Below are positions 53,738 to 56,604 of a stretch of DNA of 64,000 bases, in pieces. Below the pieces are notes generated by a model. It had not been told where the DNA came from and made no database searches. It worked only from the letters and a program-made list of their open reading frames with translations. Position numbers and translations under genes: made by a program. Position 1 is the stretch's first letter; the number at the start of each line of letters is the position of its first letter. The stretch is from a virus (lineage: Duplodnaviria; Caudoviricetes): IMG/VR virus record IMGVR_UViG_3300020042_007950, positions 18,324-82,323 of that record; one strand, given 5' to 3'.

Positions 53738-54115
53738 TCAATCATACAACTGAATTTCTACATAATATGCACGATCTGCATACTCCACTCTTACGTAAGT
53801 AGCATCATCGTAATCCATTAAGTACACCCAGCATTTCTCACCATCTTCATCAGTTGATTGCCACTCTTCAGTTTCGCTATCAATTCTTCTGTATTTGCTA
53901 TTGACAAATCTTTTAGTTTGATAAGGAGACTTCATAATAAGAGTGTCTTTGTGCATGATTACAGGGAAATCAATCTCTCTCATATCACTCCATATGTATT
54001 CTCCTTTAACATCCTCATTTAAATGAGCAATACTTAGAGAAACACCATGGAATACTGATGGTTGTGCAATTGCTACATTAGCAAGCAACATAAATGCAAA
54101 AACGATTTTCTTCAT
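53738..54115 (-). CDS. Secreted/periplasmic protein
   Basis: Signal peptide MKKIVFAFMLLANVAIA-Q. Confidence 0.65.
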   Translation of the reverse strand: MKKIVFAFMLLANVAIAQPSVFHGVSLSIAHLNEDVKGEYIWSDMREIDFPVIMHKDTLIMKSPYQTKRFVNSKYRRIDSETEEWQSTDEDGEKCWVYLMDYDDATYVRVEYADRAYYVEIQLYD

Positions 54116-54163: not shown

Positions 54164-54222
54164 AAAAAAACAAGTCAGTAGCCATAAGAGAGCATTGCCA
54201 ACTCTCCTATGGTACTACTTGC
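54164..54222 (-). terminator. Intrinsic terminator downstream of twister B
   Basis: 11-bp stem CCAUAGGAGAG/CUCUCUUAUGG (one G-U pair), outer CAAG/CUUG extension, then U7. Confidence 0.7.
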
Positions 54223-54238
54223 CTAATCATTAACCTAA

Positions 54239-54362
54239 CCCTCTGTACTCAATCACAAAACTCGGCTAAACTATGTTGTTTATATGCATTTCAAACATAG
54301 TCTTTATAACGCTGTCTCTATTTTGTAATTGCTTAGCCTTGGGAACTAAGAATGGTACATTA
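54239..54362 (-). ncRNA. Twister self-cleaving ribozyme (copy B)
   Basis: UAA, P2 UGUA/UACA, T2 CC/GG, P4 CUUAG/CUAAG, loop UUCCCAAGG, 11-bp P5, then GA-GGG (T1 CCC/GGG). P1 is weak. Confidence 0.8.
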
Positions 54363-54365
54363 AAA

Positions 54366-54391
54366 TGCCTAGGAGATTTCTCCCCTAGACA
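54366..54391 (-). other. 11-bp GAAA-tetraloop hairpin immediately 5' of the twister B cleavage site
   Basis: UGUCUAGGGGA-GAAA-UCUCCUAGGCA followed by UUUUAA. Confidence 0.7.
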
Positions 54392-54433
54392 CTTTTGTTT
54401 AACAGCGACCTTTTATACTAACAAATCGAAAAA

Positions 54434-55036
54434 TTAGTTAAAGATTTCTCCTGTTGCTGCAGAGATACCAGCTGGTATACCTGTAGTCTTTGATTCTACT
54501 GCATCCATTGCTAAGAATACGTGATTAGCTTTGTGGAAAGCCATACGTGTATTAGCAAAGATATACAGACCTTGATGTGTGCAATAAGCACCATCTTTAC
54601 CTCTACGTTTAGCAGAGGTTTCGATGTTGTTGAGCTGATACTCAGTAGGCTGAGTAGTCTCTGCAACTTCTACCTTCAATGGAATTTCTTCCCCATTAAC
54701 AATAGCTACTGGATTAAGGATGTTCAATGGAAGAACTTCACGTCCCATTGCATCAATAGTCCAAGCATCATTGTTATCAGACAAATCAATGCCTAACAAT
54801 GTCGTAGCAGCTTTCGCTTCTACTGTTAACCAAGCACGACGTGCTCCTCCTTGAGAAAAACGGTCATCACCTGCATTAAATAAAGCCAGAGGATTAGCTG
54901 ATTGTGTAGACTCTTTTTGAAGAACCTCAGCAAATTCCAACTGCAATTTTTGTCCATTCACTTTCCTAGCTTGGACTAACAAGGTGCTATTCATTGACAA
55001 ACCTGCCAATGAACCGCTGTTTAGAGTGTTACTCAT
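54434..55036 (-). CDS. Hypothetical protein
   Basis: Start taken at MSNTLNSG (55036); 200 aa. Confidence 0.65.
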   Translation of the reverse strand: MSNTLNSGSLAGLSMNSTLLVQARKVNGQKLQLEFAEVLQKESTQSANPLALFNAGDDRFSQGGARRAWLTVEAKAATTLLGIDLSDNNDAWTIDAMGREVLPLNILNPVAIVNGEEIPLKVEVAETTQPTEYQLNNIETSAKRRGKDGAYCTHQGLYIFANTRMAFHKANHVFLAMDAVESKTTGIPAGISAATGEIFN

Positions 55037-55107
55037 GATTTTTATATGTTGATTTATGATTAAATCCAAATTTGAAAGCAGTTTCAACACTTGCTTAGGT
55101 GATTTTG

Positions 55108-56158: not shown

Positions 56159-56410
56159 TCACGTCCTTTCTATTGTAACTTTAATAACTACTTCGTGTAG
56201 TTTAGTAGGCTGATAATCATTATCATATGGATAATCATCATCAGGACTGCTATCCATTTTACGACGTAGATCTTCTAATGCATCTCTGTCATTAATTTCT
56301 TGACGAGCTTCCTCGACTTCTTTAATAACTTTAGATGTGTACAAGATTGTACTCATTAGGTCATCTATATCCACACTTGGATACTTTACTATAAATTCGT
56401 TTAGATTCAT
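56159..56410 (-). CDS. Hypothetical acidic early protein
   Basis: 83-aa ORF immediately downstream of twister A. Confidence 0.55.
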   Translation of the reverse strand: MNLNEFIVKYPSVDIDDLMSTILYTSKVIKEVEEARQEINDRDALEDLRRKMDSSPDDDYPYDNDYQPTKLHEVVIKVTIERT

Positions 56411-56441
56411 GGTTAATAAATGTTAGTTAATGATTTGATTA

Positions 56442-56544
56442 TGTACCACTCTGCATTCAGTTGTCCGTTCGACGATATAGTATTAGACTATAAGGTTATT
56501 ACAACTGCTTACCCTTGTGAAGTAAGTTGTGATGCATTAATACA
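56442..56544 (-). ncRNA. Twister self-cleaving ribozyme (copy A, type P1)
   Basis: P1 UGUAU/GUACA, UAA, P2 UGCA/UGCA, T2 UC/GG, P4 CUUAC/GUAAG, loop UUCACAAGG, P5 CAGUUGU/ACAACUG, then GA-GUG (T1 CAC/GUG). Covaries with copy B. Confidence 0.85.
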
Positions 56545-56545
56545 A

Positions 56546-56604
56546 ACCAACAACATATCGGTCGAAAGACTTATATAGATAAATCAGACCTCAATGCTGT
56601 TGGC
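56546..56604 (-). other. Long hairpin immediately 5' of twister A
   Basis: 11-bp GCCAACAGCAU/AUGUUGUUGGU, inner GGUC/GACC and GAUUUAU/AUAAGUC. Confidence 0.6.

Follow-up and report, generated by a model that had tools for sequence, protein, structure and literature searches.

The element examined here, B, lies on the minus strand of a virus represented by a complete 82-kb record with terminal repeats; the window, that is the whole stretch of DNA analysed, covers 64,000 nt of this virus. B sits in a 318-nt gap between two co-oriented minus-strand ORFs, of 218 and 125 aa, neither of which has a match among the Pfam and PHROG families. Just downstream of the locus is a gene for a family A DNA polymerase, and the DNA polymerase of the virus is closest to those of crAss-like phages, at only ~30% identity. 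The DNA runs that hold the virus are lake and freshwater metagenomes. An earlier note on this DNA had proposed that B is a second copy of the twister ribozyme, with an extended P5 and a weak P1, flanked by two terminator-like hairpins. The features of the locus and the other copy in the window (A) are listed below; L004 and L007 are two further variants of the B locus.

54434-55090, minus strand: upstream ORF of 218 aa, its stop codon 38 nt before the upstream hairpin
54362-54395, minus strand: upstream hairpin of 15 bp with a GAAA loop, from the MFE fold; same hairpin in L004 and L007
54239-54362, minus strand: B, candidate ribozyme core and P5, read 5' to 3' as 54362 to 54239
54362/54361/54360, minus strand: predicted scissile bond between U54362 (-1) and A54361 (general-acid position), then A54360, placed by alignment to the twister core
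54359-54355, minus strand: 5' strand of P2, UGUAC, pairing with GUACA at 54248-54244
54354, minus strand: single C after P2, candidate 5' half of T2, with G54338 as possible partner
Directly 3' of C54354 and before P4, minus strand: junction AUU, read from the sequence
54350-54346 with 54336-54332, minus strand: P4, CUUAG/CUAAG, enclosing L4
54345-54337, minus strand: loop L4, UUCCCAAGG, with CCC 54343-54341 as the 5' half of T1
54250-54331, minus strand: whole P5 arm, made of a 12-bp base, an internal loop, a distal stem and a 16-nt loop
54331-54320 with 54261-54250, minus strand: P5 base, 12 pairs with two G-U among them, from the MFE fold
54302-54294 with 54277-54269, minus strand: P5 distal stem, 9 pairs, from the MFE fold
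54239-54249, minus strand: 3' core, with A54249, GUACA 54248-54244, G54243-A54242 and GGG 54241-54239
54243 and 54242, minus strand: putative general-base G and A of the A-A pair, respectively, with roles taken from the twister literature
54343-54341 with 54241-54239, minus strand: T1, CCC with GGG, three Watson-Crick pairs
54164-54224, minus strand: terminator-like downstream hairpin of 24 pairs with two 1-nt bulges, then U7 (54170-54164), from the MFE fold
53738-54115, minus strand: downstream ORF of 125 aa with a signal-peptide-like N-terminus, its start 48 nt past the U-run
56439-56547, minus strand: copy A, with a 5-bp P1 (UGUAU/GUACA), T1 CAC/GUG and a 51-nt P5

Copy A lies 32 nt before a start codon at 56410, and a long hairpin precedes it. 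The 17-nt spacer after B (54222-54238, minus strand; UUAGGUUAAUGAUUAGG) shows a 94% match to the terminal repeat of the virus (E = 0.15; G000:C1:19-35 and 82221-82237), which may be chance.

We found every twister motif that the earlier note had listed for B at 54362-54239 of the minus strand, although several stems proved longer than described: P2, given there as UGUA/UACA, has five pairs (UGUAC/GUACA) and not four, the 11-bp P5 is the core of a base of 12 pairs that includes two G-U, and the 7-bp stem CUAUGUU/AACAUAG is part of the 9-pair distal stem. The P2, P4 and P5 stems and both flanking hairpins appear together in one MFE structure of 54400-54150 (-78.2 kcal/mol, z = -5.7), and none of 200 shuffled sequences folded as well. 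P2 and P4, in the canonical twister order round the cut site, both form in B, and the catalytic and tertiary-contact bases (A+1, A+2, the G-A after P2', and the U and A-A of L4) are all present. By the fold and a pairing check, no contiguous P1 pair is possible next to T1, because the bases 5' of the cut site are locked in the upstream hairpin, with U54362 itself in its last pair.

Within the window, the 5' core pattern is present as A and B only, two occurrences against 0.00 expected in shuffles. A first search pattern, consisting of the core common to A and B, matched 13 IMG/VR contigs, and a looser one with P4 left free matched at least 120. The 3' half lies outside the search pattern, yet every match has it after a P5 of very variable length: the strand that closes P5 comes first, then an A, a sequence exactly complementary to P2, G-A, and a triplet complementary to that of L4. 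This half is conserved in 112-113 of 113 members. The family so defined comprises at least 135 distinct copies on well over 100 IMG/VR phage contigs. A covariance model (R2) made from 11 copies of other phages, with no window sequence and no B orthologue among them, detected B at 60.1 bits (E = 1.3e-12) and copy A at 76.9 bits (E = 7e-17); these two are the only family copies in the complete 82-kb virus.

On the other side, the Rfam twister models (RF03160, with a gathering score of 67.2 bits, RF03154 and RF02684) gave no twister match in the whole window at the gathering score, nor at E <= 10 in the 3 kb around B and the region around A. The same was true of RF03160 against the whole 82-kb virus, of 140 kb of related loci at the gathering score, and of the compact relative L010 at E <= 10, while blastn against isolated phages returned no match to the B region or to copy A. 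The twister assignment made in the earlier note is thus supported by the architecture and by the covariation among orthologues and family members, but B is missed by all Rfam twister models, and since this holds even at E <= 10, we regard it as a variant and not as a textbook member.

Two other places on the minus strand of the window deserve mention. The segment 56830-57050, 'element C', gave no match to model R1 at E <= 1 or to R2 at E <= 10, and element C, if twister-related, lies outside the family consensus. The segment 44077-44130 matches both models weakly (13-14.5 bits, E ~0.7-0.9) and carries UAAUGUA...UACAGAGUG without P4/L4, which is probably chance.

Conservation of the fold was assessed in alignment A3, which holds 114 matches from a model search over 100 loci. 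The paired fraction is 99.2% in P2, 99.6% in P4, 98.7% in the P5 base, 99.1% in T1 and 74% in P1; the model was fitted to the nested stems and thus favours their pairing, whereas T1 lies outside the covariance model and its pairing was therefore not fitted. Double changes are seen in 21 of 25 pairs, and the covariation score is 0.485, a value that none of 500 shuffles reaches (0.166) and that compares with 0.03-0.10 when the partners are slid. All five pairs of P4 covary, P2 shows CG/UA swaps at its third and fifth pairs, and T1 shows C-G to A-U swaps at two positions, with CUC/GAG in L010.

Invariant or nearly so in A3 are the U-A-A at the cut (in all 114 members), the C after P2 (114/114), the next A, the A after P5 and the G-A. 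In L4, this applies to U-U-C and A-A-G-G, with the UCNNAAG part among them and the G that would partner the C found in 114/114, while the T1 positions vary. The catalytic and tertiary-contact bases as a whole are invariant or kept in 112-114 of 114 copies, and published work identifies them as the general-acid A, the second A, the general-base G and the bases engaged in the sheared A-G, U-A and A-A tertiary pairs (PMC5408937; PMC11662667). The family L4 has U-UCNNAAGG where the rice P4-L4 loop, as quoted in PMC11662667, has UCCCAAGC. As judged from its sequences, the family is a variant branch of the twister class that current Rfam models miss. Its predicted layout is a P0 hairpin, U^AA, a 5-bp P2, C, a short junction, P4/L4, an obligatory P5, A, P2', GA and T1'.

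This layout departs from that of textbook twisters in several respects. P3 is absent in B and in the family layout, and P5 is found in every copy, with a conserved base (consensus CAGUUGUAA.../...UUACAACUG) and a total length of 12-195 nt, usually 40-140 nt. Beyond the four canonical pairs of P2 comes a C or U that would be expected to form the second T2 pair but covaries with the G/A just 3' of P5. Four separate lineages of P4/T1 contain both states (CG in 105 copies, UA in 28, other in 2), which gives P2 an apparent length of 5 bp, with five pairs in B and nearly all copies against the canonical four. T2, for its part, may be reduced to an invariant C-G pair, the extra U of L4 possibly pairing with the second G. 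In B, C54354 can pair with G54338 and C54355 could pair with G54337; the C and the GG are invariant and show no covariation, so that the C-G pairing of T2 is one that we infer only.

Prior studies bear on several of these points. One review warns that changing the length of P2 might disturb the active site (PMC5408937), and in the data of McKinley et al. cleavage was unrelated to the length of P2 (PMC11662667). In the same study, defects were least tolerated in T2 (PK1), PK1 had a 5' strand described as 'NC', changes at L4 position 1 and imperfections of P1 were tolerated, and the P5-bearing twisters of the large assay were all highly active (PMC11662667). Most of the departures would thus seem acceptable in light of the literature.

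The weak P1 reported for B in the earlier note is confirmed, and P1 loss is a trait of the family: contiguous P1 pairs number at least four in 56 of 135 copies and at most one in 54, and by threshold P1 is weak or absent in 40-58% of the family. In 53 of the 54 P1-less copies, T1 consists entirely of G-C pairs. Copies with CCC/GGG divide into 27 with P1 and 78 without, those with an A-U-containing T1 into 29 and one (Fisher p = 6e-13, a value that overstates the evidence because the copies are related). P1 is phylogenetically conserved but dispensable for cleavage in vitro (PMC5408937; PMC11662667), in line with the statement of the earlier note that twisters without P1 can cleave.

The upstream hairpin of B has its 3' arm paired right to the cleavage-site U54362, giving a flush end. 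The fold agrees with the claim that this GAAA hairpin occupies the P1 sequence, and the hairpin is also terminator-like, with an A-tract, the 15-bp stem and UUUU within its last pairs. The more fitting name for it is P0, a known optional stem-loop that directly precedes the twister and is present in ~10% of tested twister candidates (PMC11662667). A stable upstream fold (46 nt, -10 kcal/mol or better) is found in 42/135 copies against 7/135 shuffles, and 21/131 control windows 300 nt further up reach -10 kcal/mol or better. The upstream hairpin is enriched in the family yet optional, with about a third of the copies having one, and that of B is unusually strong by comparison. A new circular permutation in which this hairpin replaces P1 was rejected as a family rule: only 9 of the 54 P1-less copies have a hairpin that stops no more than 1 nt from the cut site, and the arrangement holds for B and its two orthologues only.

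Family copies lie between genes and run in the same direction as their neighbours. The nearest same-strand ORF is at a median distance of 192 nt on the upstream side and 115 nt on the downstream side; for ORFs of the opposite strand the medians are 485 and 437 nt. The distance from the 3' end of the ribozyme to the next ATG-ORF is 30-39 nt in 26/115 cases and 20-49 nt in 42/115, and the spacer up to the start codon is A/U-rich, without Shine-Dalgarno-like sequence. At L018:516-2377 (minus strand), four solid copies and a weak one are found within 1.9 kb, with small ORFs between them. The 15 bacterial genome matches are all metagenome-assembled bins, with no cultured host among them; Chitinophagaceae, Sediminibacterium and Bacteroidia are represented, a hint, though no proof, of hosts in the Bacteroidota. 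Related phage contigs with other RNA features are L065:12716-12973 and L063:13038-13371 (both plus strand), of which one carries a group I intron (97.6 bits) and the other two overlong tRNA matches (99 and 145 nt).

Considering all the above results, we propose, with a probability of about 0.75, that B cleaves itself as a twister-class ribozyme and belongs to a phage-specific variant family. At the level of sequence, the fold of B and its membership of the family are established; the cleavage, the cut site and the role in processing are what we infer from them. In this model, P2, P4 and P5 would form as the minus-strand transcript exits the 218-aa gene, L4 would dock on the 3' GGG (T1) and on the C after P2 (T2), and the RNA would cut itself between U54362 and A54361. 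The upstream mRNA would be left with a flush 15-bp hairpin and a 2',3'-cyclic phosphate, and the downstream RNA would start with a 5'-OH and a compact ribozyme fold, and would either stop at the hairpin-U7 (54164) or continue into the 125-aa gene. The 3' end given to the 218-aa mRNA by cleavage would be the same as that expected from termination at UUUU, with the downstream part uncoupled.

The biological role of twisters is still largely unknown (PMC5408937, PMC6765202), and for twisters and hammerheads near phage genes it has been proposed that they cut polycistronic transcripts into pieces of different fate (PMC6765202). Intercistronic RNA processing is most likely the role of the present family too. 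The 124 nt that separate B from the next gene contain a strong hairpin, and a role in leader processing therefore fits B less well than it might fit other copies.

Since a strong hairpin-U7 separates B from the next gene, its downstream product may be a ~198-nt RNA. This opens an alternative, which we consider unlikely, in which the ribozyme of B mainly releases a discrete small RNA running from 54361 to ~54164, with the long P5 as its functional part. The cut site and the strong hairpin-U7 do bracket the element, and the downstream terminator of the earlier note appears in the fold as a 24-bp hairpin with U7, but it was not listed by a simple consensus terminator scan, and neither was the upstream hairpin. 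Across the family, a terminator-like downstream hairpin is found in 22/135 copies only, which rules out a downstream terminator as part of the family element and makes the idea of a discrete small RNA specific to this locus.

The three variants of the B locus (window, L004 and L007) bear on the same question. In L004, with a neighbouring protein 97% and upstream DNA 95% identical to those of the window, the same hairpin, core and downstream terminator are found, the downstream hairpin (54224-54164) being identical, and P5 measures 12 nt only (CAGU-AACU-ACUG); therefore, the long arm is not required there, and the extended P5 of the earlier note is present in B but not conserved at the locus. 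L007 is more distant (neighbouring protein 63%, upstream DNA about 68% identical) and shows compensatory double changes in P2 (UGCAC/GUGCA), P4 (CUCAG/CUGAG) and the P5 base, and another hairpin with a U-rich tail downstream, so that each of the three variants has such a hairpin after B. The distal 60 nt of P5 in L007, absent from L004, are 98% identical to the window amid flanks of 61-67% identity and compensatory stems, suggesting sequence-level constraint or recent transfer. Two further loci, L005 and L006, have nothing but the hairpin at the B site. A scan of viral and metagenome contigs with a hairpin-plus-core pattern returned no further B orthologue, only duplicates, and a scan with the P5 tip of B returned only L011, which is the same contig as L007.

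RNA libraries and the rest of the family also bear on the small RNA. The 218-aa ORF is covered by RNA-library contigs from three freshwater studies at depths of 12-40, where DNA carry-over is possible, and in four RNA runs with small shares of the virus as contigs, these reach the 218-aa gene and stop short of the ribozyme, hence of the B element. One RNA contig, of another phage, spans a twister cut site and could be uncleaved RNA or DNA carry-over. Furthermore, the P5 tips of the family are nearly all unique (122 inserts in 100 clusters), even if the whole P5, base and tip together, is strongly structured (median z -4.2).

A more speculative and decidedly improbable extension would see the twister scaffold as a carrier of hypervariable P5 modules that move between phages independently of the flanks, with the cut and terminator of B releasing a ~200-nt 5'-OH RNA that acts in trans, for example in strain-specific regulation or anti-defence. 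It is suggested by the L007 locus, where the tip of B is 98% identical in spite of neighbours at 61-67% and compensatory changes in the surrounding stems.

It could also be argued that B is a twister-derived structured RNA that has lost cleavage and serves, for instance, as a protein-binding, stabilising or termination element. The failure of Rfam to detect it and the deviations in P2 length and possibly T2 would be in keeping with this, as would a P0 placed directly against the cut site, given that P0 lowers cleavage in vitro (0.40 in P0-bearing twisters against 0.85; PMC11662667). However, all positions whose change abolishes activity are invariant in the 114 copies and T1 covaries, and with the catalytic bases kept, a non-catalytic role is hard to see; we consider loss of cleavage quite improbable.

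The P5 tips themselves appear to be exchanged between copies, as seen at the following loci.

L012:10405-10575, L013:10774-10889 and L015:3585-3703: tip-swap loci, with unrelated tips in near-identical contexts
L017:3142-3324 and L019:7876-8058: tips 100% identical, with flanks of 37% and 31% identity

The first three have unalignable tips in contexts 97-99% identical upstream, and the window and L004 are a further such case. We counted 20 pairs with tips at least 80% identical, most of them with far less similar flanks, and several pairs share one flank only. The simplest reading is probably gene conversion between copies, with the conserved cores as homology arms, or, alternatively, mosaic breakpoints at the ribozymes, although the tips may in addition serve a function, and this exchange may matter more than B itself. 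Taken to its extreme, it would make the cores mainly DNA-level homology patches for swapping P5 modules or gene cassettes, with RNA activity secondary. The L012, L013 and L015 swaps, the L017/L019 tips and the one-flank pairs are what this proposal would predict, but the compensatory changes in four stems and a pseudoknot point to selection on the RNA fold, and recombination at repeats is an expected side effect that needs no separate function, which makes the proposal very improbable. Finally, the idea that AT-rich intergenic DNA came to look like the twister consensus by chance, for which only the missing Rfam match could be cited, is ruled out by the covariation across 135 copies, the shuffle expectation and the independent model R2.

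With self-cleavage by a twister variant as the preferred reading, the gain at locus B itself is modest, namely a new variant form of a known ribozyme class. The family, with at least 135 copies in lake phages and often several per genome, is a large natural data set that reveals a whole branch of the twister class to be overlooked by current Rfam models. It also shows that natural twisters often lose P1, a loss associated with an all-G-C T1, and that the canonical 4-bp P2 and 2-bp T2 may be re-wired. The intergenic, co-oriented placement and the 20-49 nt spacing to start codons make the idea of a 'cistron separator / 5'-end insulator' directly testable.

Among known systems, twister-sister (RF02681) resembles B only vaguely in its stems: it cleaves the opposite strand and has no pseudoknots (PMC5408937), whereas in the B family T1 covaries, the twister-specific bases are present and RF02681 gives no match. 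The closest likeness is to twister type P1 (RF03160; Roth et al. 2014, as summarised in PMC5408937). It has the same order of elements (U^A-A, P2, T2 dinucleotide, only a candidate in B, P4/L4, P2', G-A and T1'), an L4 that carries both pseudoknot halves, as predicted for B, the same bases for the A-G, U-A and A-A tertiary pairs, and the same catalytic A and G. The rice twister loop UCCCAAG (PMC11662667) is matched by the L4 of B, which is one U longer. Yet P3 is found in ~78% of known twisters and is lacking in the B family, a GC of L2 goes with a GC of L4 where the B family has YC with GG, and four P2 pairs stand against five, with P5 always present and B without P1. B scores below the reporting level of RF03160.

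The twisters of McKinley et al. 2024 include forms with P0 upstream and P5 3' of L2, both of which B has, and their 'NC' PK1 strand and tolerance of P1 imperfections fit the YC of the family and its frequent lack of P1 (PMC11662667). In that library P0 occurs in ~10% and P5 is uncommon, while in the B family P5 is universal and a stable upstream hairpin is found in about a third of the copies. B also resembles the mini-twister without P1 (Kosutic et al. 2015, as reported in PMC5408937), in which cleavage would likewise take away the RNA that precedes a single U, whether unpaired or held in a hairpin; in that account the mini-twister is engineered, whereas the lack of P1 in the B family is natural and recurrent (54/135).

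With respect to genomic setting, phage-associated hammerheads and twisters are also intergenic, occur in several copies per genome and have been proposed to process polycistronic transcripts (PMC6765202, PMC10085705), but they reside in bacterial chromosomes, unlike the B family, which is found in free lake-phage contigs. Hatchet, present largely in Crassvirales (bioRxiv 10.64898/2026.03.07.710320), shares with the B family its setting in phage genomes.
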